This document shows positions 5,188 to 64,000 of a stretch of DNA of 64,000 nt, in pieces. Position 1 is the first letter of the stretch, and each line of letters begins with the position of its first letter. The position numbers and the translations under genes were made by a program. A model generated the notes under the pieces. That model made no database searches. It had not been told where the DNA came from and saw only the letters and a program-made list of their open reading frames with translations. Source of the stretch: Giardia intestinalis (taxonomy: Eukaryota); NCBI GenBank assembly GCA_000002435.2, contig CM018790.1; one strand, 5' to 3'.

Positions 5188-5212
5188 CAAGATCCAGAAT
5201 CTGAAAGTCGGA
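5188..5212 (+). repeat. 20-bp motif GATCCAGAATC(T/C)GAAA, copy 1.
   Basis: The sequence aagatccagaatctgaaagtcggattcc recurs at 22885-22906 in direct orientation and at 21775-21800 in reverse orientation (gatttcggattctggatctc). Confidence 0.6.
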
Positions 5213-5294
5213 TTCCATCCAGCTCTGGTGAGAAAAGAAGACTTTATTTTCATCTCCCTAGGAGCTGTTGCTATTCCTCCCAGCGCCTTCTAAG

Positions 5295-5445: not shown

Positions 5446-8400
5446 GGCTTCAAGCTCTCCGTTGCTCTGGGAGCTCCTTGAGACCGGCCAGGAAGGAGGC
5501 CTCCTGCCCCTCAGTGCTCTTACACCCAATGTTGACCGTCGAGCATAGCGCTTCGCTAGGTCTGTCGCCTCTGTGACTACCCTGTCGCGTCACTGTCATC
5601 GGCATGGGCAGTGAGTGGAGTATCTCCTTCAGCTCCTGGTGAGCAGGTTCTGTACCACGCAGTATGGGGGCATGCGCAGGGCCCCGAGGGACCGAGTCCA
5701 GGAGTGCAGCGCGTCCCAGCCGGAGGAAGGCCTCGACGCAGCTCCTCGGGACGGGGCACACTTGCCTGGGAGAGGCCGTCTGCTGTTGGGGCTCTCGTTA
5801 TGTCGAGCGAGGCCGCCGTGCCCATCAGCTTGTGTCTCCCTGTGCCATGCGAACACCACCCATGTGCAATCGGTGGAACGCAGTCTGCTCTGTCTCGAGG
5901 AAGGCCAGTGTCTGGGTCTCCAGGGGGCTCGGGACTGCCTTGTGGAGCGCATCATGATCGTCCCCTGATCGTGGTTGTCCTGTCTCGTTCTTGGGAAGAG
6001 GGCAGAACAAAAGTTCTTCTCCCGTCGGAGTCGCTTGGCACTTGAGTTCGAACTTTGGGTTTTGATCTTGGCCAATGCAGGGATGAGGGAGACCTGCTTC
6101 CCCAGAGCGGCGGTGGCTTGCATGGGAAGATCACTCAGATAGCAGGTGACAGCCCCACCCCGGCTAAAAAACTTGAGGCAGCCGTCGCGCCCGCCGCCCC
6201 CAGGACAGAGATTCTGCGTGCATGGCCAGCTGCCCTTGTCAGTTCGGTCTACTGGTCCGGTAGTCTGAGGACCTTCTGCGCCGCTTCTGATGTATGATGC
6301 ATCGCAACTGCTTATAGGGGTAAGCAGCATGAAAAGGCAATTGCATGTGTGGACATTGTACTATGACCGTCTCAGAGGGCCGAAGTCTCCAACTACAGAG
6401 CGCTGCACCGAGCAACACGCCCCACTGCCCTGCGCCGGTGGCTGCCTCCACCACCGTCTTCGTTGCACTTGGGCTGTGCCTGCCCAGCAGACTGAGCAGA
6501 GATTACAGAAGCTTCTCTAATAATGCACACACGCCGCATAAGGTCTGATGATGGAATGGACACCACCTGTCTGAGCTGTCTGCTATTGACGAGAGACAGC
6601 CCTTGGTTGCACTAGAGTGCTTTTGTTTAAGCATAAGGTCTTCGCACCTACTCCCCCATCAGCTATAGCGATAGCTGTATATCCAGAAGGGTCCTGCAGA
6701 GCGTTCCACCGTCTTTCAAGGTAAGGCATGGGCTCCATACCTATAGCTAAAAACAGAAATCCGTGCACCAAGTGTCACGAGTCTAGTATACTGACCGACC
6801 TGAATCGCAGTGCACTTGTCAAGGACCTGTGCACACGTTTGGATGCTCACTGCTAGTGGTAGACGGGCTTGTAAGGAAAATTGCTTCTGGTCGCGCTTGC
6901 CTTATAGTGTTTGATCCTGGGTGGCATGCCTCAGCAAAGGAAGATGCTATTTATATGCATAGAAGGCTATCCATGCACAGTGATTCCTGGAAAGCCGGTT
7001 CGCACGGAGAGGGTAGAGGCCATCAGCAAACCAGTGAGATACACCTGACGCTAGAGAGGCCAGCTACCGGCTCAGATTGCAGTGGTGACACTTGTAGTGC
7101 CCCTCTGACTTCTAAGCATGGAAACGTCACGGGGTCTGTGGGCAAACCGGACGCTCTTTTTGATTTTATACGTTTGTAGCAACGTAGTATTTATTGGGGT
7201 CTGCTTCGTCTGGAGTCGAGGAGGCTCGCTTTCTCTCCACATACAGATTAAGATCGATTGTAGGGGTATACTGTGCAGATCAGTACCAGTCAGTGTGGTC
7301 TCTGTCCACAGGTACCTCACTTGCGTCTTCCCGTGGCAGACATTCACCAACAACACCTCCGGCCTGTGTGGTGTTCTACAGTGTACCTTCACCTTCGACC
7401 AAGGGGCTGGTACACACGTTACGTAATTTAGATTGCTCATCAGTCAGGGTGGTATGGTCCGCTCTTGTTCTCCACTTGCATATCTCGTATAACCTGCTGA
7501 TAGCCTTTCCAGATTAGTATGCAGATGCTTCTATCGGTCCTGTAAGGCATGCGTCATGTAGGTAACCATTACAGGCCAGAGTCCTGTCTGCTAAGGAAAA
7601 GAACCACCAGTTTACCATGTGGACATCCGTTGTGCTCTCCAGTATCTCCTCGCCAGCCGCCATCTAGTTCTCCCTGCCGTTTGGAGCCCGTATGTATATT
7701 GTTACTGACAAGCACTTGGTTTCAATGGGCCCCTGGGACGTTAAGCACTTTACCCTGTGCAGTGGGTATGTTCAATGTGGGAGATACACAATCAGCATTG
7801 ACTTTCTCACTCATTGTTTGTGTAATTATTGTTGCTTCTTAGTCTAATTAGCAACCCAGATCATGGCCTCCAGTGTAGTGGTATTCTACCAACAGACAGC
7901 TGGCAGTGACTGTGGCACGTACTTTCATCAAGACACAGCCACCTGAGCAGGGGTATGAAATGGGTCCTTGTTATTCTACGATTCTGCTAATTCCTCAGAT
8001 AGCAGGGATCAGAGCAGCTTATTGTTAGTATTGACTATCTCCGTGTCTCCATTTATCTTCGTCGCTTGAGATACGCTTGACTCCAAAGACTCGAAAAGGT
8101 GCTATACTGTGCTCAGATCTGCGAGTCTCAATTAAGTAAGGCTACCATCTCGGTGGCTGCGCTGAGGTAGCTACACACCTTGTGGGCTCTGCAAGGTGCA
8201 TTACAGCCCAATGGAACCCTTACCTATCGAATGCAGGCCGCAATGCAGCCTCGCTGGTGCACGATTTCTTAAGATGACTGATCAATCCGCAGAGTCCACC
8301 CTACTCATGTAGAGCCAGCGATAGATGACGATATCAACCCTGTAGATAATCTACACTGTACATCAGTGGTCCTATAGGTAAGTAAGGGTCAGCCATCCCG

Positions 8401-9916
8401 CAGTAATGAGCATTAGCGGTGTCTTTCCCAAGAATAAATGGGCGAGTTGTCAGCAGTCACAACATCCGCTTTCTCAATGAAGACCGCCCTGCCACTGAGG
8501 CCCAGGCCAGTCTCCTATAAGATCCTTGACAAGATTGTATCCAAGATGTATATCTATGGTGCTCCCCGACTCAAGGTGTATGCTGCTGAACCTCCCATTT
8601 CTCGTATCAGCTTATGAATATCGATGTCCCTGCCTCTAGCAGAATTGTATTAGAAATAATATGAGATATGGCGCCTTCAGTCGGGTTGTTCGGATTCCCA
8701 GCTGCACAACGGGGGCCCACTTTCGTATTGTGCATCAGAAAGACATGTCATGCCGTAATGATGCAACCTTTCGTATGGTATAATTCTTGCGTCAAGAGAT
8801 AGGGCACTTGTATCGATCGGCATATCTACCCATGGCCAGTTATAGCTTGGACCAAAGGTCACAAACGAACGCTATCTAACTCCCTTATCAACAGACGGGA
8901 GATCTGACCATCCTTCTGCCTCACACAAAGCCACAAAGGATTCTAGATCAGGATTTCGGCCAGTAGCTGGCAAGTCATTATACTCTCCTGGATTTCTGCT
9001 CCCTCTACTATAGGTATCCACATGTAGGAAGCTCTGAGGGCCTAAAGTCCTACACCAATAGGCTCAGGGTACTGCAAACCCAGGTGTTTTCACTAGTGGT
9101 GGTAGTGATGGTCTCAAGATGATCCAGAAGGGATGACAGGAGTCCTGGTCAATCAACTTAGAAGGTGGCACGGCTTGGTCAGTGATTCTCCTTGTCCAGA
9201 TGCGGGACTGCTTGTCTGCGCCTTCTAAGCTTCACATGGCATCCCGTCATGCGATAGGATATCTTAATAATATTCATTAAAAAAGGCCAGAAATGACACA
9301 CTGTACATCCAACAGACTGCTGCACCTTATTATCTAATCTTTGCCGGTTCACACCTTCCACAAACCCCAGTGGTTGCTGCGATCTTCTCTTAGGATCTCG
9401 TAGGGGTCTTTCATTAAGGGAGGCTCCCCTGTGACGACCAGAGGTCGCAGACATAATCCAAAGGGATGCGAATGCTACGGAGGCGGAGAGAAGGTCATCG
9501 GCGCACGGGGGTCCGCAGGGGCCCGACCCGTCCAGGGAAAGCACAGGGAGCTGGCTTATCAGAGACGCAAAGACGCCAGGAGAAAAGCCAGCAACGAACC
9601 CACGGCACAGTGGAGGCACTCGAGCCGTCCTTTGATTGGCCGCAGGGCAGAGAGGCGGCAAGCGTGTGGAGAGGTCTCACCACTTATTTTTGGATTTTCT
9701 GTTTCCCTGCGTGTTGTGCAGGGAGCATGGGGTTCAGACCCAGGGAGCTCGCGTGGGCTGTATGCAGTAGATGTGCTTAGTATTCGATGAGCTTCTATGC
9801 CCTAAGCAGAGGTATCGTAGAAGACGAATCTCTTTGGATTAATTAGCATAGTGTAGTCAGGTCTTTAGTCTTAAGTATCTTATTCTTACTTATACGACAA
9901 GCTGAGAAGGACCTCA

Positions 9917-11803
9917 ATGTTGCTGGTAGTTTTCTACTTTGTGCTGAGTGCTCTTGCGGGAGCATGTACTGTTGAGGCTAACACACGAGATTGTACAGAG
10001 AATAAGTGCGAAATGGTTGGCGAAACAGAAATCTGTACACAATGCAAGACGGGCGGAAATGTTCCCATTGATGGAGTGTGTAAGGCGGTTGCTGAGGCCG
10101 CCAATAAGTGTACGAAGAGCGATGACAATCCGGTAGGCGCAGGAGATACGACTTGTGGAAAATGCGTAAACGCATACTTCATGTACAAAGGCGGATGTTA
10201 TCTGGCCGGTGCAGCTGGACCGGGTACTGGTACTAAAATGTGCAAGCAGGCTGCTGGTGGCAAGTGTACGCAAGCTGCTGATGCGAAGAACTACTTCATT
10301 CCACCAGCAAATACAGACGATACTCATGATTCTGTCGTTTGGTGCGGTGATGAAATAGGCGTAACACTTAGTAGTACTCAGTATAAGGGTGTTGCTAAGT
10401 GCCTAGTATGTGATGCTCCCGGTGGGGCTGGTGCTGCAACGTGCACAACCTGTGAAGACGGGTACTTTGGTGCTACTTGTAAAAAATGCCATGAAAGTTG
10501 TAGGACATGTGAAGCTGCAGAAGAGAATAAGTGCAAGTCGTGTACAGATGGCTACTTCCTTGGAGCAACCAATGGAGCCGCAGGTAAGTGCCTTAAGTGT
10601 AACTCTAAAACAGAGGAAGGCTGGCACGGAGTTGACAACTGTGCTAAGTGCACGTCATCTAATACGCAAAACACCCCTGCGACATGCACTGAATGCGTTG
10701 CAAATTTCTATCTAAAACCAGCCGCGGGTGCAACTCCTTCTAGTTGCGTCACAGAAACGGGGTGCGGTGACGGATACTTCCCAACTATTGTTGATGAGAT
10801 CAAGAAATGTATCGCTTGCGGTACAGCTGCAAATGGTGGCATAGATGACTGCAAAAAGTGTTCTCTCAAAACAACGTCTGCGAAGGCAGGAATAGAGATC
10901 GTATGCACTGAATGTAATACTAAATGGCTCAGTCCTCTAGGAGACGCATGTTTGGATAGCTGTCCTCCTGGAACACATGCTGATTCTGGCAATATTTGTC
11001 CTTTATGTCATAGCACATGTGCAGAGTGTGATGGCAATGCAGAAGCCACATCGTGCAGAGCATGTTATCCCGGATTTGTGCTGAGTTATGGCAGCGATAA
11101 AGTCAGAGGCACATGTATTCAAGAATGTACCGGCAAATACGCAGAAAATTGTGAAGAAAATATGTGTACGGCTGTCCTTGGAGGCTCCAAGTATTGTAGC
11201 AAGTGTAAGGCCGGATTCGTTCCAATAGATGGTGTCTGTGTATCGACAGCTTCACGAGCAGTAACCGGATGTACGCCAGGAAATGGAGTATGCATTGCAT
11301 GTACAGACTCATACTTCTTACAGTCTGGAGGATGCTATCAGTCGACAGTGTTTCCTGGTAATAAGCTGTGTACACTAGCTAGTAATGGAAAGTGTACAGC
11401 ATGCTCCAACGGGCAAACAGCAGATGGTCAAGGTTCGTGCCCAGCGTGTAATGCCATCTGTGCAACATGTGCGGCAGGAAATATAGACCAATGCCAAACT
11501 TGCTTCCCTGGATACTATAAATCCGGAACTAAGTGCGTAAAATGTAGCATTACTGACAACGGAATAACTGGTGTAGAGAACTGCATAAGCTGTGCCCCTC
11601 CAGCTGGTAATAGTGGTCCTGTCACTTGCTATATGAAGACAGATGACACTAACGATGGTGGTAACGACAACAACGGCGGAAGCACGAACAAGAGCGGGCT
11701 CTCCACAGGGGCCATCGCGGGGATCTCCGTGGCTGTGATTGTTGTTGTAGGTGGTCTCATAGGCTTCTTGTGTTGGTGGTTCATATGTAGAGGGAAGGCG
11801 TAA
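9917..11803 (+). CDS. vsp: Variant-specific surface protein (VSP), 628 aa, copy 1.
   Basis: The ATG is at 9917. The product has an N-terminal signal peptide (MLLVVFYFVLSALAGA), many CXXC motifs, GGCY motifs (KGGCYLAG, QSGGCYQS), and a single C-terminal transmembrane helix (AIAGISVAVIVVVGGLIGFLCWWFI). It ends in the invariant Giardia VSP tail CRGKA, and the stop codon TAA is embedded in ACTTAGGTAGTAAAC. Confidence 0.92.
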   Translation: MLLVVFYFVLSALAGACTVEANTRDCTENKCEMVGETEICTQCKTGGNVPIDGVCKAVAEAANKCTKSDDNPVGAGDTTCGKCVNAYFMYKGGCYLAGAAGPGTGTKMCKQAAGGKCTQAADAKNYFIPPANTDDTHDSVVWCGDEIGVTLSSTQYKGVAKCLVCDAPGGAGAATCTTCEDGYFGATCKKCHESCRTCEAAEENKCKSCTDGYFLGATNGAAGKCLKCNSKTEEGWHGVDNCAKCTSSNTQNTPATCTECVANFYLKPAAGATPSSCVTETGCGDGYFPTIVDEIKKCIACGTAANGGIDDCKKCSLKTTSAKAGIEIVCTECNTKWLSPLGDACLDSCPPGTHADSGNICPLCHSTCAECDGNAEATSCRACYPGFVLSYGSDKVRGTCIQECTGKYAENCEENMCTAVLGGSKYCSKCKAGFVPIDGVCVSTASRAVTGCTPGNGVCIACTDSYFLQSGGCYQSTVFPGNKLCTLASNGKCTACSNGQTADGQGSCPACNAICATCAAGNIDQCQTCFPGYYKSGTKCVKCSITDNGITGVENCISCAPPAGNSGPVTCYMKTDDTNDGGNDNNGGSTNKSGLSTGAIAGISVAVIVVVGGLIGFLCWWFICRGKA

Positions 11804-11817
11804 CTTAGGTAGTAAAC
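11803..11817 (+). promoter_or_regulatory. VSP-type extended polyadenylation signal ACTTAGGTAGTAAAC overlapping the stop codon.
   Basis: The sequence acttaggtagtaaac begins at the last base of the TAA stop. It matches the vsp extended poly(A) signal consensus as I recall it (ACTYAGRTAGTRAAY), and it contains the general Giardia AGTRAAY poly(A) motif. Confidence 0.6.
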
Positions 11818-14536: not shown

Positions 14537-14551
14537 GTTTACTACCTAAGT
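14537..14551 (-). promoter_or_regulatory. VSP-type extended polyadenylation signal of VSP copy 2, the mirror image of 11803-11817.
   Basis: It is the reverse complement of the same 15-mer, located at the 3' end of the minus-strand VSP. Confidence 0.6.
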
Positions 14552-16437
14552 TACGCCTTCCCTCTACATATGAACCACCAACACAAGAAGCCTATGAGAC
14601 CACCTACAACAACAATCACAGCCACGGAGATCCCCGCGATGGCCCCTGTGGAGAGCCCGCTCTTGTTCGTGCTTCCGCCGTTGTTGTCGTTACCACCATC
14701 GTTAGTGTCATCTGTCTTCATATAGCAAGTGACAGGACCACTATTACCAGCTGGAGGGGCACAGCTTATGCAGTTCTCTACACCAGTTATTCCGTTGTCA
14801 GTAATGCTACATTTTACGCACTTAGTTCCGGATTTATAGTATCCAGGGAAGCAAGTTTGGCATTGGTCTATATTTCCTGCCGCACATGTTGCACAGATGG
14901 CATTACACGCTGGGCACGAACCTTGACCATCTGCTGTTTGCCCGTTGGAGCATGCTGTACACTTTCCATTACTAGCTAGTGTACACAGCTTATTACCAGG
15001 AAACACTGTCGACTGATAGCATCCTCCAGACTGTAAGAAGTATGAGTCTGTACATGCAATGCATACTCCATTTCCTGGCGTACATCCGGTTACTGCTCGT
15101 GAAGCTGTCGATACACAGACACCATCTATTGGAACGAATCCGGCCTTACACTTGCTACAATACTTGGAGCCTCCAAGGACAGCCGTACACATATTTTCTT
15201 CACAATTTTCTGCGTATTTGCCGGTACATTCTTGAATACATGTGCCTCTGACTTTATCGCTGCCATAACTCAGCACAAATCCGGGATAACATGCTCTGCA
15301 CGATGTGGCTTCTGCATTGCCATCACACTCTGCACATGTGCTATGACATAAAGGACAAATATTGCCAGAATCAGCATGTGTTCCAGGAGGACAGCTATCC
15401 AAACATGCGTCTCCTAGAGGACTGAGCCATTTAGTATTACATTCAGTGCATACGATCTCTATTCCTGCCTTCGCAGACGTTGTTTTGAGAGAACACTTTT
15501 TGCAGTCATCTATGCCACCATTTGCAGCTGTACCGCAAGCGATACATTTCTTGATCTCATCAACAATAGTTGGGAAGTATCCGTCACCGCACCCCGTTTC
15601 TGTGACGCAACTAGAAGGAGTTGCACCCGCGGCTGGTTTTAGATAGAAATTTGCAACGCATTCAGTGCATGTCGCAGGGGTGTTTTGCGTATTAGATGAC
15701 GTGCACTTAGCACAGTTGTCAACTCCGTGCCAGCCTTCCTCTGTTTTAGAGTTACACTTAAGGCACTTACCTGCGGCTCCATTGGTTGCTCCAAGGAAGT
15801 AGCCATCTGTACACGACTTGCACTTATTCTCTTCTGCAGCTTCACATGTCCTACAACTTTCATGGCATTTTTTACAAGTAGCACCAAAGTACCCGTCTTC
15901 ACAGGTTGTGCACGTTGCAGCACCAGCCCCACCGGGAGCATCACATACTAGGCACTTAGCAACACCCTTATACTGAGTACTACTAAGTGTTACGCCTATT
16001 TCATCACCGCACCAAACGACAGAATCATGAGTATCGTCTGTATTTGCTGGTGGAATGAAGTAGTTCTTCGCATCAGCAGCTTGCGTACACTTGCCACCAG
16101 CAGCCTGCTTGCACATTTTAGTACCAGTACCCGGTCCAGCTGCACCGGCCAGATAACATCCGCCTTTGTACATGAAGTATGCGTTTACGCATTTTCCACA
16201 AGTCGTATCTCCTGCGCCTACCGGATTGTCATCGCTCTTCGTACACTTATTGGCGGCCTCAGCAACCGCCTTACACACTCCATCAATGGGAACATTTCCG
16301 CCCGTCTTGCATTGTGTACAGATTTCTGTTTCGCCAACCATTTCGCACTTATTCTCTGTACAATCTCGTGTGTTAGCCTCAACAGTACATGCTCCCGCAA
16401 GAGCACTCAGCACAAAGTAGAAAACTACCAGCAACAT
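14551..16437 (-). CDS. vsp: Variant-specific surface protein (VSP), 628 aa, copy 2. Its amino-acid sequence is identical to copy 1, and the two genes converge.
   Basis: It is the mirror image of 9917..11803 within the palindrome. The translation is 100% identical, including the CRGKA terminus. Confidence 0.92.
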   Translation of the reverse strand: MLLVVFYFVLSALAGACTVEANTRDCTENKCEMVGETEICTQCKTGGNVPIDGVCKAVAEAANKCTKSDDNPVGAGDTTCGKCVNAYFMYKGGCYLAGAAGPGTGTKMCKQAAGGKCTQAADAKNYFIPPANTDDTHDSVVWCGDEIGVTLSSTQYKGVAKCLVCDAPGGAGAATCTTCEDGYFGATCKKCHESCRTCEAAEENKCKSCTDGYFLGATNGAAGKCLKCNSKTEEGWHGVDNCAKCTSSNTQNTPATCTECVANFYLKPAAGATPSSCVTETGCGDGYFPTIVDEIKKCIACGTAANGGIDDCKKCSLKTTSAKAGIEIVCTECNTKWLSPLGDACLDSCPPGTHADSGNICPLCHSTCAECDGNAEATSCRACYPGFVLSYGSDKVRGTCIQECTGKYAENCEENMCTAVLGGSKYCSKCKAGFVPIDGVCVSTASRAVTGCTPGNGVCIACTDSYFLQSGGCYQSTVFPGNKLCTLASNGKCTACSNGQTADGQGSCPACNAICATCAAGNIDQCQTCFPGYYKSGTKCVKCSITDNGITGVENCISCAPPAGNSGPVTCYMKTDDTNDGGNDNNGGSTNKSGLSTGAIAGISVAVIVVVGGLIGFLCWWFICRGKA

Positions 16438-19400: not shown

Positions 19401-20924
19401 TAAATAGCATCTTCCTTTGCTGAGGCATGCCACCCAGGATCAAACACTATAAGGCAAGCGCGACCAGAAGCAATTTTCCTTACAAGCCCGTCTACCACTA
19501 GCAGTGAGCATCCAAACGTGTGCACAGGTCCTTGACAAGTGCACTGCGATTCAGGTCGGTCAGTATACTAGACTCGTGACACTTGGTGCACGGATTTCTG
19601 TTTTTAGCTATAGGTATGGAGCCCATGCCTTACCTTGAAAGACGGTGGAACGCTCTGCAGGACCCTTCTGGATATACAGCTATCGCTATAGCTGATGGGG
19701 GAGTAGGTGCGAAGACCTTATGCTTAAACAAAAGCACTCTAGTGCAACCAAGGGCTGTCTCTCGTCAATAGCAGACAGCTCAGACAGGTGGTGTCCATTC
19801 CATCATCAGACCTTATGCGGCGTGTGTGCATTATTAGAGAAGCTTCTGTAATCTCTGCTCAGTCTGCTGGGCAGGCACAGCCCAAGTGCAACGAAGACGG
19901 TGGTGGAGGCAGCCACCGGCGCAGGGCAGTGGGGCGTGTTGCTCGGTGCAGCGCTCTGTAGTTGGAGACTTCGGCCCTCTGAGACGGTCATAGTACAATG
20001 TCCACACATGCAATTGCCTTTTCATGCTGCTTACCCCTATAAGCAGTTGCGATGCATCATACATCAGAAGCGGCGCAGAAGGTCCTCAGACTACCGGACC
20101 AGTAGACCGAACTGACAAGGGCAGCTGGCCATGCACGCAGAATCTCTGTCCTGGGGGCGGCGGGCGCGACGGCTGCCTCAAGTTTTTTAGCCGGGGTGGG
20201 GCTGTCACCTGCTATCTGAGTGATCTTCCCATGCAAGCTACCGCCGCTCTGGGGAAGCAGGTCTCCCTCATCCCTGCATTGGCCAAGATCAAAACCCAAA
20301 GTTCGAACTCAAGTGCCAAGCGACTCCGACGGGAGAAGAACTTTTGTTCTGCCCTCTTCCCAAGAACGAGACAGGACAACCACGATCAGGGGACGATCAT
20401 GATGCGCTCCACAAGGCAGTCCCGAGCCCCCTGGAGACCCAGACACTGGCCTTCCTCGAGACAGAGCAGACTGCGTTCCACCGATTGCACATGGGTGGTG
20501 TTCGCATGGCACAGGGAGACACAAGCTGATGGGTACAGCGGTCTTGCTCGACATAACGAGAGCCCCAACAGCAGACGGCCTCTCCCAGGCAAGTGTGCCC
20601 CGTCCCGAGGAGCTGCGTCGAGGCCTTCCTCCGGCTGGGACGCGCTGCACTCCTGGACTCGGTCCCTCGGGGCCCTGCGCATGCCCCCATACTGCGTGGT
20701 ACAGAACCTGCTCACCAGGAGCTGAAGGAGATACTCCACTCACTGCCCATGCCGATGACAGTGACGCGACAGGGTAGTCACAGAGGCGACAGACCTAGCG
20801 AAGCGCTATGCTCGACGGTCAACATTGGGTGTAAGAGCACTGAGGGGCAGGAGGCCTCCTTCCTGGCCGGTCTCAAGGAGCTCCCAGAGCAACGGAGAGC
20901 TTGAAGCCAGTGATGGCACTAATC

Positions 20925-21063
20925 ACTCGCCCCGCCTGTCCAGACGGACCCACACGTGACCCATGTGAATCCCTCGACAAGAAATAGGACTTGGGGTGCT
21001 TGGCTGGCAGAGGCGGACTGATCCTAACCGCACCGAAGAGTGGAGGCCTGGACCACCTGCCGG
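20925..21063 (+). repeat. Short dispersed repeat element, copy B, at the right outer boundary of the palindrome.
   Basis: ggcactaatcactcgcc...ggcagaggcggactgatcctaaccgcaccgaagagtggaggcctggaccacctgccggg matches 22997-23150 along its whole length with scattered mismatches. The match continues about 50 bp beyond the point where palindrome identity ends at 21014. Confidence 0.75.
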
Positions 21064-54346: not shown

Positions 54347-57300
54347 TTATCCTACCCATTCCCCTTCGAAGACTGTGCCATTTGCATATGTCATGACACC
54401 CTTACCGCATATCTTATTTGCCAGAAAGTGCCCCACATAAACATCTCCATTTGCATACCTCAGAGTTCCCTTTCCGTGGTACTTACCATAGCTAAACTCT
54501 CCTGTATACACGTCTCCACTCTTCTGCCGACGCACTCCTTCACCGTGCGGCATCCCAGCAGCAACGTTTCCTTCGTAGTAGTCTCCATTACTGTATGTTA
54601 TCTTGCAGTCGCTTCCTTCCATAACGTCATGGGCGAACGTTCCCTCCAGGACATCTCCGTTGATAAGGCGCATGATGCCCTGGCCGTGCTTCATGTTGTT
54701 AGCAAACTCCCCCTCATATCTGTCGCCGTCTCTGTAGACCAAAGTTCCTGCACCCCACATTTCGTTTTCTCTCCACATTCCCTCGTAGACACTGCCATCT
54801 GGAAAGGTCATTTTACCGAGTCCGCTACGAAGATCTTCCTTGTACGGTCCAGTGTATGTACTGCCGTTAGGATAATTCATCGTGCCGTGTCCATGCCGAA
54901 GGTCGTTAAGAAACTCACCTACATAAATCTTCTCTTCTTTGTATATTAGAGTGCCACTTCCACAGCGCTTATCCTCTTTATACTCGCCTTTGTACTTTAG
55001 CGCTCCAGTAGACAGGTAGAATGCACCACTCCCATGCCTCATGCAATCAAGTACGTCGCCCTCATAGTAGTCTGAGTTTGGATATACCATCCTGCACTTG
55101 TGGGCAGAAGGGGTTATGCTGGGGTTTGTCAGGGCAGAAGCATCGGCGTCTACCTCGTCTAGGGCCAAATTGTATTGAGCACATAAGTTCTCGGACGGGT
55201 CTGTGTGTCCTTTGTTGAGCAGCTCTATCCTGGCAGAGCACAGCGTAGAGTAGTGCTTCTTAAACTGCTCTGGTAATCTCTTAAGCTGCCAATGGATTGT
55301 AAGAAACGTGGTAGTTGATGAAAGAAACGCCTTTCCGGCTCCATAGAACACTCCGTAGACATATTCTCCTATATATCTAATATCGGAGCTTTTGAACACA
55401 ATCTCCACAGTATCTTTCTCGTTACCATTCTCATATGTGTTTTCCATTATTATTGGCTGGAGAGGTTGTATGGTTTTTTCTAGCACACCATCATCACTTT
55501 TACCGTCCTTGTCGCGTCGCTCTAACACCCGAAACCGGTTAGATGTGCCGTTGATGAATTTGACAAGCTTTCCGGATGGGACTCCTTTGACGTATCTTCC
55601 TGTTTCAATCTCTCCCTGGGAACTCAGAATAGTCTGATCACCGCACAGGTTGTCGTTCCTGAAAGCCCCAATGACTAGCAACCCGGATCCTGCTGAAAAT
55701 GCCTTCCCGGCCCCGTGTCGTCTATCTGCGTAGAAGCCTCCACGATATATGTCTCCGTTGACATAATGCACGACTGCAATGTTAGACGATGTAAGTGTAA
55801 ACTCATAGGGATCCTCACTACACCCAAGAGTCAGACAATAGCTAGGCTCCGCACTCTCTGGACCATGATCTTTCGAGGATGCAAACCTCATTGGGCCGGC
55901 GTATGTTCTTATGTGACTGTGTGGGCCATAAGGCCTTGTCTCGCTATGAGCGTAGATCAAAAGATTGTACCCCCCGTGGGAGATGTCTCCCTCATAAAAG
56001 CTAGCTGTCAGCACATAGTTATACATAGGGTTTGTCAGCTTCCCAAGCCCAGAAAACTTCCCTCTAGAAAATCTCCCTTTGTAGCTGATTCCATTAGAAT
56101 ATTCTAGGAGGCCTTCTCCGTGGAAGAGGCCGTCCTTTAAAGGGCCTCTATAATGGTAGGTATTATCTGAAACAGTGTATACTGTACATGCACCAGCCTG
56201 AGCTTGCTGTATCCCTTTAACTACCCGCCTGTTTTGCGGGTCTGAATATTTAAATATCACCGTGCAGTGCTCTTGTGCCTTTCCATCCTCAAACTCACCT
56301 TCTGTTAGAGTGTCTTCTGCGCTGCTATAATATGTGCCCACACCCGTTTGCTTTCCTGCGATAAACTGACCCTTGTACCATGAGCCATCACCGAATGAGA
56401 GTGTTCCATCTCCATGGGGAAGCCCATTTGCAAATTCTCCTACATAGCTAGCATCACCCATCCTACCATTGTTTCCATAGGTGATCTTGCCTGCACCCTC
56501 CAGACGCCCTTCAACGAAATTCCCTTCGTAGATGTCTCCCGTCGTGGTCAACAGCAACCGCCCGGGGCCATGTCTAACATTATTGTAAAATGCTCCCACA
56601 TATTCTTCTCCTTCACTGGGAAGTTCTTGGCGGGATTCTGGGCCATCACGGCGAGACTGCACAAAAATCCCCTCGTACCGCTCCTGCAGTGTTGGTCGGC
56701 CATTGTGATCTCTTTTATAAAGAGACAGAACTCCGTGACCCGAAAGGACATTATCACTGATTGGCCCCTGGTAATTGAAAAGTTCCGATGATATAACAAT
56801 GCTTTTTCCACAGAGCGTTAATTCAGGACTAATATATCCTTTGTAGTTCGCTAGAACTGGTTCCTCGTAATCAATCCCTAGTGCTTGGAAAAAGTTTTCT
56901 TCCACAAATGAGGCCTCCAAAGCTATCTCTACTTCCCCTTGAAAAGAGCATACACAAGACAAGAGCTGTTTAGAGCCTAGTAGTTCTAAAAGCCTGTAGT
57001 ACCTAGAGAGATTGAAGTAGTTACATAGCTTGTACAGGTCTGGCTTCTGAGGCGAGGTCACAACTCCTGAAACAACCCCTAGACCTGGAGCAGTTACTTT
57101 GCCTTCTAGCAAGGGAAGATCGGCGTCAAATTGGCCGGAGTATTCTACTAAGAGCTTGTCATTGCATTTCAGAGCAAACTCTCCTTGTCCCCTGCGTCTG
57201 CCGTTACGGTACGTCCCCGAGTAGAGGAGACGTAACTGCGAAGATCCTGTGTCAGACGAGTGAACAGAGATGTCCATGGTGGCCTCTCCGTCTAGTATGG

Positions 57301-59677
57301 AACTATTGTAGGTCCCAGTAATTGTTGCAGTGCATACTAAATAAGGAGCTTCTGCCTGAGAAAGCGTAGCATACTCTGATTCCACTTTATCCTGAGTAAG
57401 AACGGATAGCTCAAGCGATCCATCTAAGTAGCCATCTGCGAAAGACCCGGTTGCTAAAACAGCAAGCCTGGTGTCAGGAAATTGATAGAACATAGCTCCA
57501 GTCCCTGTCAGGCGCATATCCTCCAGTGTTCCAGCGTAGAACTGTGGAACGAGGCTAGTCAAGTTGCTAGGATCTAGGGTAACCGACTTCAAGTTACACG
57601 TTTGCACATCTGTCAAAACAGCTTGCTCGCTATTGAGGTCCTCTCCGGCTAAGATCTTGGCCACGACAGTTTCAAGATTATCTGCCGAAGCGTTGAAGAA
57701 AGATACGAAATAGGAGGGTGAAAACCTAGAAGGATTGGCCCTTTTGATTGGCTGAAGCTGACTAACAGTCATGAGGTCTGACGGATCATCAACCGTATCT
57801 CTGGCAGCTCTGGAAACAGAAAGGGATGTCTTAAGGCAGAGCTTCCGCATCGCACTCGTCACTAGCGATGGGAAGGCATTCGGTGCACTGCAATACACAC
57901 GATAGCGAAACGTATCCACCTCAACTAGGACAGGGCATTGTGGCACATTGTGCTTGAAAGAACCAATGGTTCTGCGGGCTATGTGTTCATTGGTTACTTT
58001 GTCTAAACACATGTAATCCGTGAGGACGCCAGATAAGAACGTATCATCCTCAAATTTTCCAACGAAATGATACAGATTTCCAGCCTGTTGTGTCCCCCGT
58101 CCTGATCGGAGGCCACGAACAAAGGTCCCCTTGTAAACTACCGCCAATCCTTTTCCCGGGAGTGTAGATCTTCCAAGGCGAGAAACACCTGTTGTTTGAA
58201 GGAATGATTCTATCACGGAAGCCTCCACTGTTGAAGATTGACAGACAGAGCTATGTTGAGGACGGAGCGCCGGATTGAAGCCCATCGAAAGGGTGCCCTC
58301 CCCCGTTATCTGATCATCCTGTGCAGTACCACTAAAATAGAGGTTATTGCAGATTATGTCAAGGTCTCCCTGTCGCTGGCACATAGTATCCAGTGTAAAC
58401 TTAGACTTATATGTAAGCGCGTTATTGGCCCTATCCTTAAACTCAATAGAGATACTACATGCGCCATGGAACACATTGCTTGAATATTTGGAAAATGTGA
58501 TCGCAAGTTTGAAGTACTGAATTAGGTCGACTTCACTTGATTCCAAAATAGCTAGGTCCCCTGTATAGCTGAAAGCAACGGTCCCAGTAGATGGGATCCC
58601 AGCTACATAATCTCCCGAAAAGGTGAACTGGTTATCGTACTCCACCTCACAGCTACCGTCCAATACCCCGGCCTTAATAGACCCTGTATAGCTTACTATT
58701 AATCGAGGAGAGATACATGAAGAGAGAAAGCGCATAAGCGGCTCCACTCTAGCGTTCCAGACACTCGTGTAGAGACCATCTTCATAGCAAAGGAGGTAGT
58801 CACTGAACACAGACACGCTATCGGGTTCTAGCAGCCCCAGAATAGTGTTAATGGTGTGTCTGGATGGGTACTTATTGGATCCCTTTATCACGTAGTGAGC
58901 TGCTCTGTCCTCTATCTTGCCAGAATTGAACTGTGCCTCATAGATGCCTCCGTCTGGAAGTAGAAGCCTTCCTGCACCGCTATATAGGCCATCCAGAAAG
59001 CCTCCTACGTAAATTGTCCCATCCTTATATTCTATTCTGCCCTGTCCTGTCTGTTGTCCATCCGAAAACTCTCCTTTGTACGTGTACTCTTCGGTTTGCA
59101 GCTCGCCACTGCCATGAAATACCCCCTTAGTGAACGCACCTACGTAGTAGAAGGCAGGGGTTTTAAGGGTTCCAGAGCCATGGTAATCCCCACATTCAAA
59201 GGCACCCTCATAGTGTGCCTCACCCACGATATCCAGAACCCCTTTGCCATGGCGAAGGTTGCTTTTCCATTCACCTTCGTAGTAGCTCCCGTCTTTATAC
59301 GTCAAGATGCCTCTACCCTCACGAACATCATTGGCCCATGTACCCTCATAGACTGAGCCATCGGGATAATGGCACGTCCCTGTGCCGTCACGCTTCTCTT
59401 GCCTGTATGTTCCTTCGTATACCGTACCGTCCTTATAGCGTGTGCGGCCCTTTTTAAACATCTGAAGAGACAATCCTTTGGTTTTATAGAGGTTTATGTC
59501 TTGGTCCTTAAGTATCGTTCCATTGGATGGTGGCAGATCATAGTACATCCAAAGATAAACTGTGACTATAGCTATAGGCAGGAGATGCGATTTATGAAAA
59601 CGGTGCTTGACGGTAAGCAAAGTCAATCTTATAGCACCTTGGTCGCCAGAAGGGTGTATGGATATTACACTACGCAT
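54347..59677 (-). CDS. MORN-repeat protein, 1776 aa.
   Basis: Dozens of MORN units (Y.G....G..HG.G.....+G..Y.G.W) are present. Examples are YEGTYRQEKRDGTGTCHYPDGSVYEGTWANDVREGRGILTYKDGSYYEGEWKSNLRHGKGVL and the C-terminal run YEGDVLDCMRHGSGAFY...YVGHFLANKICGKGVMTYANGTVFEGEWVG. The ATG at 59675-59677 overlaps the Dicer stop by 8 bp, so the true start may be a downstream Met. Confidence 0.75.
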   Translation of the reverse strand: MRSVISIHPSGDQGAIRLTLLTVKHRFHKSHLLPIAIVTVYLWMYYDLPPSNGTILKDQDINLYKTKGLSLQMFKKGRTRYKDGTVYEGTYRQEKRDGTGTCHYPDGSVYEGTWANDVREGRGILTYKDGSYYEGEWKSNLRHGKGVLDIVGEAHYEGAFECGDYHGSGTLKTPAFYYVGAFTKGVFHGSGELQTEEYTYKGEFSDGQQTGQGRIEYKDGTIYVGGFLDGLYSGAGRLLLPDGGIYEAQFNSGKIEDRAAHYVIKGSNKYPSRHTINTILGLLEPDSVSVFSDYLLCYEDGLYTSVWNARVEPLMRFLSSCISPRLIVSYTGSIKAGVLDGSCEVEYDNQFTFSGDYVAGIPSTGTVAFSYTGDLAILESSEVDLIQYFKLAITFSKYSSNVFHGACSISIEFKDRANNALTYKSKFTLDTMCQRQGDLDIICNNLYFSGTAQDDQITGEGTLSMGFNPALRPQHSSVCQSSTVEASVIESFLQTTGVSRLGRSTLPGKGLAVVYKGTFVRGLRSGRGTQQAGNLYHFVGKFEDDTFLSGVLTDYMCLDKVTNEHIARRTIGSFKHNVPQCPVLVEVDTFRYRVYCSAPNAFPSLVTSAMRKLCLKTSLSVSRAARDTVDDPSDLMTVSQLQPIKRANPSRFSPSYFVSFFNASADNLETVVAKILAGEDLNSEQAVLTDVQTCNLKSVTLDPSNLTSLVPQFYAGTLEDMRLTGTGAMFYQFPDTRLAVLATGSFADGYLDGSLELSVLTQDKVESEYATLSQAEAPYLVCTATITGTYNSSILDGEATMDISVHSSDTGSSQLRLLYSGTYRNGRRRGQGEFALKCNDKLLVEYSGQFDADLPLLEGKVTAPGLGVVSGVVTSPQKPDLYKLCNYFNLSRYYRLLELLGSKQLLSCVCSFQGEVEIALEASFVEENFFQALGIDYEEPVLANYKGYISPELTLCGKSIVISSELFNYQGPISDNVLSGHGVLSLYKRDHNGRPTLQERYEGIFVQSRRDGPESRQELPSEGEEYVGAFYNNVRHGPGRLLLTTTGDIYEGNFVEGRLEGAGKITYGNNGRMGDASYVGEFANGLPHGDGTLSFGDGSWYKGQFIAGKQTGVGTYYSSAEDTLTEGEFEDGKAQEHCTVIFKYSDPQNRRVVKGIQQAQAGACTVYTVSDNTYHYRGPLKDGLFHGEGLLEYSNGISYKGRFSRGKFSGLGKLTNPMYNYVLTASFYEGDISHGGYNLLIYAHSETRPYGPHSHIRTYAGPMRFASSKDHGPESAEPSYCLTLGCSEDPYEFTLTSSNIAVVHYVNGDIYRGGFYADRRHGAGKAFSAGSGLLVIGAFRNDNLCGDQTILSSQGEIETGRYVKGVPSGKLVKFINGTSNRFRVLERRDKDGKSDDGVLEKTIQPLQPIIMENTYENGNEKDTVEIVFKSSDIRYIGEYVYGVFYGAGKAFLSSTTTFLTIHWQLKRLPEQFKKHYSTLCSARIELLNKGHTDPSENLCAQYNLALDEVDADASALTNPSITPSAHKCRMVYPNSDYYEGDVLDCMRHGSGAFYLSTGALKYKGEYKEDKRCGSGTLIYKEEKIYVGEFLNDLRHGHGTMNYPNGSTYTGPYKEDLRSGLGKMTFPDGSVYEGMWRENEMWGAGTLVYRDGDRYEGEFANNMKHGQGIMRLINGDVLEGTFAHDVMEGSDCKITYSNGDYYEGNVAAGMPHGEGVRRQKSGDVYTGEFSYGKYHGKGTLRYANGDVYVGHFLANKICGKGVMTYANGTVFEGEWVG

Positions 59678-61934
59678 CAGCTACTACTTGTGGGAGAACA
59701 TGCTCTCGAACAAAAGCACCTGCTGCCTCTTCCCCGCACGCAAGAAGAATTGCTGCCAAAATGGCTTCAAATGTATCGCCATAAACCTTGCTGTCAGGCT
59801 GTATTTTCGGATGGGATTCTATAATAACCTCAGAAACTACAGAAGGAAACCTTTTTGTCAATCTTCCCAGTACAGAATTTGTTTCTGCAGATTGCCGCAT
59901 GCGTGTAAGAGCGCCCTCTGTGAGCGTGGGGTGGAGAGCGTGGAGATGGAGAGCAAGGCTGCACTTCAGGAATGCGTCTCCAAGAAGCTCAAGTTTTTGG
60001 TACACGTGAGGAGTTAGTGCTATTTGCAATAACCGAATCAGGAAGGGGATAGTGCCACTAGGAATGGGTACGGCCAGAGATCTGCTAACTGTCTGAGCTG
60101 CTATATGCTTACTACCTCCTGATGACTCATATGCCAGAATCTTCTCATAGAGAGCGAGAACCTTAGAAGCAACGGGCCCTGTAGGGGTTTCTGTGAGCGA
60201 CCCATATAAAACAGGACACTGCACAGAGCGATGATAGATATATAAAACAGGTATAGTGGGCGGACAAGCCGACTCATTCTTATCAGTTTGCTGTTCAACA
60301 TAGAAGCCTGGAGAGCCCAGCCATAGGCCTCGAGCCAAATGTGTCATTATGTCTATAACTGATACGACGCCGCCAGGTCCTGATAGGCCTGAACGATGCG
60401 AAAACTGGATACCAAGTCGGTACCAATCTAGCATGTCCTCTGCTGGAATGTCTCTGAGACGCTCGAGAAACATAGTTGACACCCGCGAAGAACAGAAGAC
60501 ACTAATGCCTTGCTCACAAGCATAGTCCACAAGGCTTCTGAATTCATGCGCCCCCGCTTCTCCCATGCAAACACGCTTTGATGCCTTGGTGACTGCATCT
60601 GGACAGGCAGATCCTACTGTCTTGGAGTGTTCGGGACTCATAAGCGTCTTCGCAAGAAATTCCTCACAGCCATAGATTCCATTAGGTCCCGTAAAGATTG
60701 ATCCAACGATCTCCTCATACATATCTGCCCATGTTTTGCTCTTCGCCACAAGGTTGTTGGAAAACTCCGCCAACTGAGGAAGTCCAAGCGTTTGTACAAG
60801 ATAGTTTAGAGCCTCATTGCGAACAAGCTCCATCTTTAGCTCAACAAGTGTTCCCACAGACGCATCTGGAAAAAGGCAAAGGAGGCGGGCAGTCACGATA
60901 AAGCCTAACACAGCATCTCCTAGCAATTCGAGTCGCTGGAAAACATCGGTGTGACTTACACCAAAAGGCCCAAAGGGTGTTCTCCAACCGGCAAGCCCTC
61001 GTCCACGCCCCTGATCGAGCCGAAGTCCGGCAGTGATTGCAAAGTATCGCTCGCCACCGATCCGCCCACAGTCAGGAAAGCTTTTATCCAGGGCACAGAT
61101 TGTATTCTGTATGTCACATATGTGCTTAGCAATCTCTGGTAGAAATTGAAGCGCCTGGACCCTGATTAGATCAAATTCATCTGGCAGCAGTAGGCAGAGC
61201 TCAGGCGGCAGGAAGCGAAGCTTGGGAGCCAAATCATCCCAGGATCCAGGCGCGGGAATCTGGTGGTCTTTTAGATCGTCTAATCTGACTGCTGCCACAA
61301 GCGGAAGATCTGCAGCACGCAGGTGAATATTGTGGGCTGTTGCATAGTATCTCATGTATGTTATTGATTCATTTGCTCTGGTAAAGTAAGAAAGGCTAGT
61401 TTGGGTAGAATCGATCCCAAGAACGACATAAAGAGACCAGCTTATTTCGGGAGTTGCAACCATACGCCCATGGAGGGATGCAGATAAAGTGGAATAGTCT
61501 GTATATTCATCTGACAAGCGCTTTGCATCACACATGAGTTGTGCAGTGACCATTAATGCACGCAAGTCCAGAGGGCTGGTAGGAGATAGTAAGGGTAAAA
61601 ATGCCAGGGTGGCGAATTGTGGTGGATTGGATATAAATCGAGGGAAAGTGTATTCATTGTGAGGCATTGTTGCTCCAATCTCAGTCCATGAAGCAGGAAA
61701 TGTGGGTCCCAGCAGCTGAAAGAGAATGGACTGATACACGGCTACTATAGTTGCATCAGTTCGAGAGAGAGACACCCTCGGACCCGCTTCAAAGTACACC
61801 TCTGCGGCGGGAAGCCCTCGGCCTGCACTAACCTTAAACCCTGGCAAGGTGCCCAGGTGAGTGTCTAGAAGTAGCAACCAGTGGGATGGTCCTCTAGTAG
61901 TCACAACTGTGCAACAGTGTCCCAAAGCATGCAT
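59670..61934 (-). CDS. DCR: Dicer (Giardia-type: PAZ plus tandem RNase III domains, no helicase, no dsRBD), 754 aa.
   Basis: Two RNase III signatures are present: FQRLELLGDAVLGFIVTARLLCLFPDASVGTLVELKMELVRNEALNY and YQKLELLGDAFLKCSLALHLHALHPTLTEGALTRMRQSAETNSVLGRL. The final catalytic-type motif is GDTFEAILAAILLACGE. The length and architecture match the crystallised Giardia Dicer of roughly 750 aa. The N-terminal third, of about 330 aa, precedes RNase IIIa and is consistent with the platform/PAZ region. Confidence 0.85.
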   Translation of the reverse strand: MHALGHCCTVVTTRGPSHWLLLLDTHLGTLPGFKVSAGRGLPAAEVYFEAGPRVSLSRTDATIVAVYQSILFQLLGPTFPASWTEIGATMPHNEYTFPRFISNPPQFATLAFLPLLSPTSPLDLRALMVTAQLMCDAKRLSDEYTDYSTLSASLHGRMVATPEISWSLYVVLGIDSTQTSLSYFTRANESITYMRYYATAHNIHLRAADLPLVAAVRLDDLKDHQIPAPGSWDDLAPKLRFLPPELCLLLPDEFDLIRVQALQFLPEIAKHICDIQNTICALDKSFPDCGRIGGERYFAITAGLRLDQGRGRGLAGWRTPFGPFGVSHTDVFQRLELLGDAVLGFIVTARLLCLFPDASVGTLVELKMELVRNEALNYLVQTLGLPQLAEFSNNLVAKSKTWADMYEEIVGSIFTGPNGIYGCEEFLAKTLMSPEHSKTVGSACPDAVTKASKRVCMGEAGAHEFRSLVDYACEQGISVFCSSRVSTMFLERLRDIPAEDMLDWYRLGIQFSHRSGLSGPGGVVSVIDIMTHLARGLWLGSPGFYVEQQTDKNESACPPTIPVLYIYHRSVQCPVLYGSLTETPTGPVASKVLALYEKILAYESSGGSKHIAAQTVSRSLAVPIPSGTIPFLIRLLQIALTPHVYQKLELLGDAFLKCSLALHLHALHPTLTEGALTRMRQSAETNSVLGRLTKRFPSVVSEVIIESHPKIQPDSKVYGDTFEAILAAILLACGEEAAGAFVREHVLPQVVADA

Positions 61935-61948
61935 TCCTACTAAAAATC
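61935..61948. promoter_or_regulatory. 14-bp AT-rich bidirectional intergenic region/promoter between the Dicer gene (minus strand) and gene 61949 (plus strand).
   Basis: The sequence runs catgcattcCTACTAAAAATCatgaag, and the two ATGs are 14 bp apart. Confidence 0.45.
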
Positions 61949-62935
61949 ATGAAGGCCAAGCCCTTTTCAATTGACTTGCTCCCACGCTTTATAGCACGCC
62001 TGGACGCGCATGGGGAGATGGCTAGGATTGTCGTGGGTAACTCTACCCCCCATGGCCCCATCGCTGCGACAGTGACTGTCTCTGAGTCTTCTGTCTCTCT
62101 CGTGCGACAGGTTGCGCGGCCGCTTTCGTATGGCCCAAATATGAGTGTAACGACACAGAAGCTTACGTTCATGCTGATTCATCGGCTTGGATCCCCACGG
62201 CAGCACTTACTTCTAGGATTCGAAGATGGAACTCTGGTCATTCTCTGTGCTGAGAGCGGGGTGCTCGTGGCTGCTGCACGGCTGCCTTGTGAGAATCCAG
62301 TCCACTCAATTGCATTTGATGACATGGGTGGGATTTTCGTGGTTATGACTGCAGTTGGAGGTGTTTACAGACTCGATGGTATGGCAGGAATCCTTGCAAG
62401 TGAGCGCCCTCCACTGCTGGATCTACAGCGCTGCAGCACTCTTAGTGCCGGAAGCGAGGTCTTCACATGTGGTTTTATCCCCGGCTCAGGAGGGGAGTCA
62501 CGGCTTCTGATCCTTTATTCCTCTGGGCGGATTGACCTCTTTAGTACTGCAGCAGACACATTTCTTCAGCCAGAAACAAACAGATCTGTCACTCTTCCAG
62601 TCCTTGGCGCAATGAACATTATCACTGCAGCGCATCTATGCCAACAATCCAGAGTCCTCTACGTTGGCACTTTCAATGGGTCTGTGCTTACGGTGCCACT
62701 GGACACTCTCACTCCCGACACCCATTTGCCAGATTGCGGCGGGCCTGTCAGCGCCATTTCCCCCGTTGAAGACGGGATTTGCGTGGGAACTCTTGGTGGC
62801 CGGGTGCTTTTCAAGGACACTACGATCTATGAAGACACGCACTGCTCCATATATTGCTTGGAGGCTCTAAATTCTCGGCTTCCCATAGTCTTGGCAGGAA
62901 CCAGTGTATGGTCCCTCATATTAGTAATGCTTTAA
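61949..62935 (+). CDS. Hypothetical protein, 328 aa, with beta-propeller-like composition.
   Basis: The ORF is ATG-initiated. Recurrent beta-strand/turn patterns are present (GTLVILCAESG, GGVYRLDG, GRIDLFS, GSVLTVPL, GGRVLFKD). It is convergent with the SMYD gene, with the two stops 5 bp apart. Confidence 0.45.
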   Translation: MKAKPFSIDLLPRFIARLDAHGEMARIVVGNSTPHGPIAATVTVSESSVSLVRQVARPLSYGPNMSVTTQKLTFMLIHRLGSPRQHLLLGFEDGTLVILCAESGVLVAAARLPCENPVHSIAFDDMGGIFVVMTAVGGVYRLDGMAGILASERPPLLDLQRCSTLSAGSEVFTCGFIPGSGGESRLLILYSSGRIDLFSTAADTFLQPETNRSVTLPVLGAMNIITAAHLCQQSRVLYVGTFNGSVLTVPLDTLTPDTHLPDCGGPVSAISPVEDGICVGTLGGRVLFKDTTIYEDTHCSIYCLEALNSRLPIVLAGTSVWSLILVML

Positions 62936-62940
62936 ATATT

Positions 62941-64000
62941 TTATTCCAAAGATAACTCGGCAAGACAGCGCGTGCATTGACAGGTAAAGCACCACTGCGC
63001 AAGCTCACGCCGACGCTCGACCACCGAGCGACCCAGGTCCGTAATATATGAGATATAAAGTTCCTCTTTTTGGGCACACGGCCGCAATAGAACAAGCGTG
63101 GCTTCGCGCGCATTTTCGCTATCTCCAAAAATAACTTGAGCATTAGGTGTGCAGCTGTGGTTGCAGCAAGATATTAGAGAATAGAGGCCTGCGCCTATCT
63201 CCTGTCCGGTCTTATCCTCTATGCTATAGCTATTTGTTAATAATATGCACACAAAATAGTTAAACATTTGAGCTCCCAAAAGTGTTGCCCTCGTTAATAG
63301 AAAATAATGCTCCGCAAATGATACGTCTGGGATAAGTTTCTCGAAAACACGACCTATATCTGGAAAAACCACATTGGGGAGGTTTTGTGAAGAACTCAGC
63401 TTTGTCTTCCGGGCCTGATTTCCAGGCTCCAGATATGCATAGTACATAAATGCGTATTGGAGGCTCAGTGCTTCGTCCTCTATCTCCATTAGATACGCGG
63501 CCTCTTTGCACATAATTTGGGCCATAATCTCCAGGACGTTATATGCAGAGAAGGGGGCACATAGCTCTGGGCAGTCGTGGATGGTATGCAGAATATCTTC
63601 GGCGATGTCTGGCCAGAGGGAAACACATAGGGCTACATGACCAAGAATGTAATGCCGTTCACGACAATTCTCTGAGCAGTATTCATGCCGACACGAAAAC
63701 GCATTTTCCTTGCGGTGCTTACATGGAACGGGCTGGCCTTTGATTGAAGAAAGACAACAAAAACAGTAACGCTTCTCATTGGTGGGCTGAATGACGTACT
63801 TTGATAGTGAATTGCGAGCCGTTAAGTCCAGGCGTTCGCGTGGAGTCTGGACCGCGGGGCTGATCTGTTCCCGAGGCGAATCAAACTCATCGTGGGTACG
63901 GCCGTGTTGACTGCTTGTTTGCTTATCGGTATAGACCTCCTTGACATAGGATGGGTGAAGCCAGCAGATTAGGGGGTTTTCAACAATAACCTGTGTGCCC
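62941..64000 (-). CDS. SET and MYND domain (SMYD-like) lysine methyltransferase, partial. It continues upstream of the track ORF and runs to the window edge.
   Basis: The track ORF (62941..63525) contains the core/post-SET region: ...CNHSCTPNAQVIFGDSENAREATLVLLRPCAQKEELYISY...WCFTCQCTRC. The same minus frame stays open from 63526 to 64000 by hand translation, and there it encodes a MYND zinc finger, YCFCCLSSIKGQPVPCKHRKENAFSCRHEYCSENCRERHYILGHVALC. So the gene extends upstream of the ATG at 63525, and its N-terminus is off-window. Confidence 0.7.
   Translation of the reverse strand, partial: GTQVIVENPLICWLHPSYVKEVYTDKQTSSQHGRTHDEFDSPREQISPAVQTPRERLDLTARNSLSKYVIQPTNEKRYCFCCLSSIKGQPVPCKHRKENAFSCRHEYCSENCRERHYILGHVALCVSLWPDIAEDILHTIHDCPELCAPFSAYNVLEIMAQIMCKEAAYLMEIEDEALSLQYAFMYYAYLEPGNQARKTKLSSSQNLPNVVFPDIGRVFEKLIPDVSFAEHYFLLTRATLLGAQMFNYFVCILLTNSYSIEDKTGQEIGAGLYSLISCCNHSCTPNAQVIFGDSENAREATLVLLRPCAQKEELYISYITDLGRSVVERRRELAQWCFTCQCTRCLAELSLE

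Follow-up and report, generated by a model that had tools for sequence, protein, structure and literature searches.

A 754-amino-acid open reading frame (ORF) near the end of the stretch of Giardia intestinalis DNA analysed here (64,000 nucleotides of contig CM018790.1, the window in what follows) is the single-copy Dicer gene of assemblage A, isolate WB, which encodes the 'minimal Dicer' of known crystal structure (PDB 2FFL, 2QVW); we put the probability of this identification at about 0.98. The coding sequence lies on the minus strand at 59670..61934 (754 codons and a TAG, 2265 nt). It runs from ATG to TAG with an in-frame stop five codons 5' of the ATG, and a run of 754 stop-free codons has a chance probability of ~2e-16. 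A phmmer search of all PDB chains placed 2FFL_A and 2QVW on top with 1727 bits and identity throughout residues 1–754, the second-best match being plant DCL4 with 45.9 bits; BLASTP against 2FFL_A gave 754/754 identities and zero gaps. The molecule name in both structure entries (Dicer, GLP_546_48378_50642) implies a span of 2265 nt, the length of 59670-61934. An exact-sequence look-up returned XP_001705536.1, KAE8302000.1 and UniProt A8BQJ3 (DCL_GIAIC, 'Endoribonuclease Dicer-like') from Giardia intestinalis ATCC 50803 / WB clone C6, whose reference sequence carrying the gene is 1,539,535 bp long, and the orthologue of assemblage A2 (DH) is 97% identical. A first-pass annotation of the window, made from the letters alone, had called a real ORF of 754 amino acids at this position and named it Giardia Dicer; it was correct in every essential, and the BLASTP comparison with the structure entry that it proposed is the full-length identity given above. 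We found no evidence against the identification.

The same annotation held that the Dicer gene anchors the organism assignment, and this proved sound. Four window-encoded proteins, an isolate-specific variant-specific surface protein (VSP) among them, are identical to WB reference proteins over the whole annotated length, and the product of a MORN-repeat ORF makes a fifth, which agrees with the earlier gene model of 2007. Given the exact matches of Dicer, its neighbours and the VSP to the WB reference, the window can be assigned securely to isolate WB of G. intestinalis assemblage A, with the Dicer gene as the anchor that fixes it. Nothing in the identification is new: this Dicer has already been crystallised, its gene is a fully characterised one of a reference genome, and its structure and biochemistry are textbook material on how Dicers measure small RNAs. 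The present analysis makes small additions, namely a corrected start for the downstream MORN-repeat gene and a conserved divergent spacer of 14–15 bp.

A Pfam search of the protein found four families and no others down to E=1. The N-terminal platform domain (amino acids 1–144; 61503..61934; all coordinates in this paragraph are on the minus strand) matches PF17895, 'Giardia Dicer N-terminal domain', over the full length of the profile (1–144/144) with E=1e-100. It is followed by PAZ (PF02170; amino acids 154–252, 61179..61475; E=5.6e-10, 39.7 bits against a gathering score of 28.8), a domain that binds the 3' overhang end of double-stranded RNA (dsRNA), and by a connector region that leads from PAZ to the first RNase III domain and has no Pfam family of its own (amino acids 253–332; 60939..61178). 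RNase IIIa occupies amino acids 333–414 (60693..60938), the best of two stretches matched by PF00636 (Ribonuclease_3, E=1.4e-28). An insert or bridging region of ~228 residues without a Pfam family (amino acids 415–642; 60009..60692) separates it from RNase IIIb (amino acids 643–749; 59688..60008), which is the best of two stretches matched by PF14622 (Ribonuclease-III-like, E=1.3e-19) and also holds the second PF00636 stretch. The order is platform–PAZ–connector–RNase IIIa–insert–RNase IIIb, a minimal arrangement without helicase or dsRNA-binding domain (dsRBD). In the published structure, a connector helix in the region of amino acids 253–332 sets the ruler distance (MacRae 2006, as cited in PMC2583053 and PMC7827160).

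Both RNase III motifs quoted in the first-pass annotation are present, QRLELLGDAVLGF beginning at amino acid 333 and QKLELLGDAFLKC at amino acid 646, and its statement that the protein has neither a DExD helicase nor a dsRBD agrees with the lack of any helicase, DUF283 or dsRBD family match at E<=1. Walker A, DEAD and SAT motifs were likewise not found in the protein, and a lone DEFD at amino acid 252 is isolated. The first RNase III domain begins at about amino acids 326–333; the length of ~330 amino acids given earlier for the N-terminal region was right, and what had gone unrecognised were the platform (1–144) and PAZ (154–252) within it. All eight catalytic acidic residues, whose spacing the earlier reader wished to see checked, are found: E336 (60927-60929), D340 (60915-60917), D404 (60723-60725) and E407 (60714-60716) in RNase IIIa, spaced 4/64/3; and E649 (59988-59990), D653 (59976-59978), D720 (59775-59777) and E723 (59766-59768) in RNase IIIb, spaced 4/67/3 (all on the minus strand).

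None of these eight residues varies when the protein is aligned with five other Dicers of the Giardia lineage (97, 81, 67, 64 and 62% identical). The more diverged orthologues, which come from metagenome and read-archive assemblies (P0003, 81%; P0004, 67%; P0005, 64%; P0006, 62%), resemble WB Dicer in length (750–755 amino acids), in their four Pfam families and in their catalytic residues, and the loci share the same flanking genes and have a 15-bp divergent spacer. Identity in these four varies by region, from 71–89% in the RNase III domains and 71–88% in the connector to 56–84% in the platform and PAZ and 52–70% in the insert between the RNase III domains (amino acids 415–642), the least conserved part of the protein. 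Among 5.8 billion proteins, a word-indexed search retrieved nothing but Giardia-type proteins of 750–755 amino acids, a synthetic 'designer RRM-Dicer' and one weak plant match. The synthetic protein (P0002) is 86% identical to the Dicer and carries an RRM (PF00076) in place of PAZ; its presence in the database shows that the Giardia scaffold has served for engineering.

The N-terminal 330 amino acids were also used in an exhaustive HMMER scan against 1.84 billion cluster representatives; the one real relative was the Giardia cluster, and no credible relative outside Giardia came up among those representatives. Two weak non-Giardia matches (E=1e-5 and 2.4e-4), to a CUB-repeat protein and a bacterial immunoglobulin (Ig)-domain protein, were rejected as spurious. 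This distribution fits the published absence of Dicer and Argonaute from other diplomonads, reported for Spironucleus salmonicida (PMC3916229) and for newly sequenced diplomonads (PMC11437800).

The ruler mechanism, the product size and the roles in VSP and microRNA (miRNA) biology are taken from the literature, and the identity, domains, residues, conservation and context from the present analysis. Giardia Dicer cleaves dsRNA in a Mg2+-dependent reaction to products of 25–27 nt (MacRae 2006, as cited in PMC8138440 and PMC2583053). Described as a 'minimal Dicer' without helicase, DUF283 or dsRBD, it has PAZ and the tandem RNase III domains as its functional core and molecular ruler, and its two RNase III domains pair up as an intramolecular dimer, each cutting one strand (PMC7827160); the enzyme complements a Dicer deletion in S. 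pombe (PMC2583053, PMC3566956). By this mechanism PAZ would hold a dsRNA end by its 2-nt 3' overhang, the distance of PAZ from the RNase III pseudo-dimer would be fixed by a long connector helix lying on the platform domain, and each RNase III domain, with its four acidic residues and Mg2+, would cut one strand to give 25–27-nt duplexes. The released small RNAs would then feed an Argonaute pathway. Published knock-downs point to a role for Dicer both in restricting VSP expression to one variant and in making miRNAs derived from small nucleolar RNAs (snoRNAs).

How these two roles are weighted is open to a different account, which sets itself against the functional gloss of the first-pass annotation (Dicer as the enzyme implicated in vsp silencing) and not against the identification of the gene. 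It is possible, if rather doubtful, that Dicer mainly serves to turn precursors derived from snoRNAs and ORFs into miRNAs for translational repression, covering both the Drosha and the Dicer steps, and that VSP control acts through miRNA targeting and not through degradation driven by RNA-dependent RNA polymerase (RdRP) and small interfering RNAs (siRNAs). Partial knock-down of Dicer in Giardia causes a sharp drop in miR2 and miR3 and slower growth (PMC2583053); miRNAs bound to Argonaute are reported to repress VSPs via coding-sequence targets (PMC3937270); and Giardia is without Drosha and Exportin 5 (PMC3566956). Silencing of either Dicer or RdRP, however, yields trophozoites displaying several VSPs (PMC3566956, PMC8957917), and dsRNA formed from vsp transcripts has been proposed (Prucca et al., 2008, as cited in PMC8957917 and PMC3566956). 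On function the literature is divided: both models, RdRP-dependent siRNAs and miRNAs, are cited for VSP control (PMC8957917), and Giardia has been described as apparently without classical RNA interference (PMC2583053). The published evidence that we found consists of partial knock-downs. A search for Dicer-knockout literature after 2018 with an antigenic-variation phenotype gave general reviews only. The siRNA and miRNA models are not mutually exclusive, and the content of the window does not discriminate between them.

The first-pass annotation had also tied Dicer functionally to the VSP biology seen elsewhere in the window. Two identical VSP genes of 628 amino acids (PF03302, E=1.8e-91; C-terminal CRGKA and 24 CxxC motifs) are indeed present, at 9917..11803 on the plus strand and at 14551..16437 on the minus strand, exactly matching the separate WB-reference accessions KAE8301981.1 and KAE8301982.1. 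That their presence together with Dicer in one 64-kb window reflects functional genomic linkage, for instance a co-regulated locus, is very unlikely. The VSP genes lie ~43–52 kb from Dicer, and more than 10 unrelated genes stand between (DOCK-like, SET, p25-alpha, MORN, ankyrin, SUN, AMPK-beta, E2 and others). With ~200 vsp genes in a genome of ~12 Mb (PMC8957917), a random 64-kb window would hold at least one VSP with a probability of ~0.66 (Poisson), and in the related 41-kb contig L001 no called gene in the 16 kb around Dicer has a VSP family match. Since the VSPs are distant and such co-occurrence is expected by chance, the tie between Dicer and the VSPs is a trans-acting function reported in the literature (PMC3566956, PMC8957917) and not a property of the locus.

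The two VSP genes belong to a perfect inverted repeat with arms at 5333-12333 and 14021-21021 (7,001 nt, 100% complementary) around a spacer of 1,687 nt (12334-14020). Each arm carries the identical 628-amino-acid VSP gene, the two copies being convergent, and identical ORFs of 233 and 160 amino acids. The segment 12001-14000, which holds most of the spacer, is unusually GC-rich (0.62). Window positions 1-9900 are ORF-poor for a compact genome: the only ORFs of at least 150 amino acids are at 5629..6330 and 9179..9661, which fall within the arm of the inverted repeat, and this DNA could be non-coding, degenerate or repeat-associated sequence flanking the VSP palindrome.

Upstream of Dicer, and divergent from it, is a gene for a conserved hypothetical protein of 328 amino acids (GL50803_00103888; 61949..62935, plus strand; exact match to XP_001705535.1). 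Only 14 bp, TCCTACTAAAAATC (61935..61948), separate the Dicer ATG (61934-61932) from the divergent ATG at 61949, exactly as the first-pass annotation had counted. We compared three related loci, L001, L002 and L003, whose Dicers are 67, 62 and 81% identical to that of WB. In all three the genes are likewise head to head, with a spacer of 15 bp whose sequence is nearly invariant (GATTTTTAGTA[A/G]G..; conserved core ATTTTTAGTA) and is flanked by coding bases that vary. The A/T-rich 14-bp spacer is presumed to be a shared minimal bidirectional promoter/initiator, a reading in keeping with descriptions of very short promoters and of bidirectional transcription in Giardia.

The 328-amino-acid protein is better conserved than Dicer, with 89, 77 and 70% identity in the three related loci against 81, 67 and 62% for Dicer. 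No Pfam family matched it at E<=0.001, and at E<=10 there were only sub-threshold beta-propeller hints (E 0.05–0.35). A four-sequence profile searched against PDB retrieved only TEX1, a WD40 protein, with E=0.13, and a single-sequence AlphaFold model (mean predicted local distance difference test score, pLDDT, 44; predicted template modelling score, pTM, 0.40) was too poor for fold searching; the fold is possibly a beta-propeller. It seems improbable that this protein and Dicer are expressed together from a single minimal bidirectional promoter and act jointly, for instance with the protein as a partner in place of the missing dsRBD/helicase cofactors. Coincidental adjacency is the default reading, since genes in Giardia are commonly packed tightly and this packing is conserved.

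Downstream, Dicer is followed on the same strand by a gene for a MORN-repeat protein annotated as 'putative phosphatidylinositol-4-phosphate 5-kinase' (54347..59461, minus strand, 1704 amino acids counted from M73; Pfam MORN, E=1.7e-88). The longest ORF of this gene has its first ATG at 59677..59675, 2 nt upstream of the Dicer TAG (59672..59670). The earlier description of the Dicer stop as overlapping the ATG of the next gene holds only to the extent that, in this longest-ORF reading, the two ORFs overlap by 8 nt (ATGCGTAG); the ATG and the TAG themselves share no base. The 2007 gene model (XP_001705538.1, 1776 amino acids) used this ATG, and the revised model (XP_001705538.2 / KAE8301999.1, 1704 amino acids) starts at M73, with its ATG at 59461-59459, 208 nt past the Dicer stop.

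Comparative sequence sides with the revised model. The first 72 codons of the longest MORN ORF (59462-59677, minus strand) are open only in the WB lineage among the compared loci, and in L001, L002 and L003 the corresponding frame is broken by stops and by indels whose lengths are not divisible by three. The start context ..CAG ATG TTT AAA AAG GGC CGC (MFKKGRTRY) is conserved in the three relatives. The ATG at 59677..59675 is probably not the real start of the MORN gene, and because the frame is broken in three relatives and the M73 start context is conserved, the overlap with Dicer is most likely a chance result of this frame being open in the WB lineage and not a real gene overlap. Neither the revised annotation nor the comparison supports an overlap of Dicer with a real MORN start. 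No canonical Giardia poly(A) signal (AGTRAAY) was found 3' of the Dicer stop on the minus strand in 59460-59670; the motif is not enriched in the window as a whole (30 found, 32 expected).

The wider gene order, SET, the 328-amino-acid gene divergent from Dicer, then MORN, p25-alpha and a further SET gene, is kept in L001 and L002; the 6.2-kb L003 contig ends inside the MORN-repeat gene. The SET-domain gene next to the 328-amino-acid gene (62941-64000, minus strand; 409 amino acids in reference XP_001705534.1) continues beyond the last position of the window. A SET ORF of 194 amino acids at 62941..63525 is its C-terminal part from an internal Met and is an exact part of XP_001705534.1; a truncated gene (194 versus 409 amino acids) was considered and rejected, the frame being open to the end of the window. 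Farther away, an ORF of 3660 amino acids at 39521-50503 (minus strand) has weak DOCK-type C2 and DHR-2 matches, and in L001 a DOCK-like gene whose product has 3119 amino acids sits on the other side of the Dicer cluster, which suggests either that it is a paralogue or that the lineages differ by a rearrangement. Nothing matched when the whole window was scanned with Rfam at gathering thresholds, so no annotated snoRNA or miRNA precursor family was detected near Dicer.

Among RNase III enzymes, class 1 proteins have one RNase III domain and a dsRBD in ~220–250 amino acids, and Drosha has tandem RNase III domains and a C-terminal dsRBD but no PAZ. There is next to no chance that the ORF encodes a bacterial-type (class 1) RNase III or a Drosha-like enzyme instead of a Dicer: its RNase III domains do match Drosha (E ~7e-11 to 3e-10) and bacterial RNase III (E ~3e-5 to 6e-3) in PDB, as any RNase III domain would, but the best match is Giardia Dicer itself, 100% identical over the full length with 1727 bits, and the next (45.9 bits) is plant DCL4. 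The protein combines two RNase III domains in one chain of 754 amino acids with PAZ and the Giardia platform, it has no dsrm match and no dsRBD, and its Drosha matches are confined to the RNase III motifs. Neither of the outcomes that the first-pass annotation had named as counting against its call, best hits of bacterial or Drosha-like type or a lack of the catalytic residues, was observed. Drosha (PDB 6V5B, 5B16) resembles Giardia Dicer in having two RNase III domains arranged as an intramolecular dimer, and RNase IIIa aligns with it over amino acids 332–415 (E ~7e-11); the two differ in that Drosha has a dsRBD and no PAZ, and Giardia Dicer a PAZ and no dsRBD.

With the canonical Dicers of metazoa and plants (human Dicer, 5ZAK; Arabidopsis DCL1, 7ELD; DCL4, 9KBY) the Giardia enzyme shares PAZ, the tandem RNase III domains and the E-x3-D ... 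D-x2-E catalytic signature, the RNase III motifs aligning at E ~1e-8 to 1e-11. It departs from them in size, with 754 amino acids against ~1600–2200, and in being without their N-terminal helicase, DUF283 and C-terminal dsRBD (PMC7827160); their miRNA-type 5' pocket is also reported to be missing (PMC7827160), and the products are 25–27 nt long compared with 21–23 nt (PMC8138440, PMC7827160). The closest known system is the crystallised protein itself: PDB chain 2FFL_A has two extra N-terminal residues (756 versus 754 amino acids), and otherwise nothing differs between it and the product of the window ORF.

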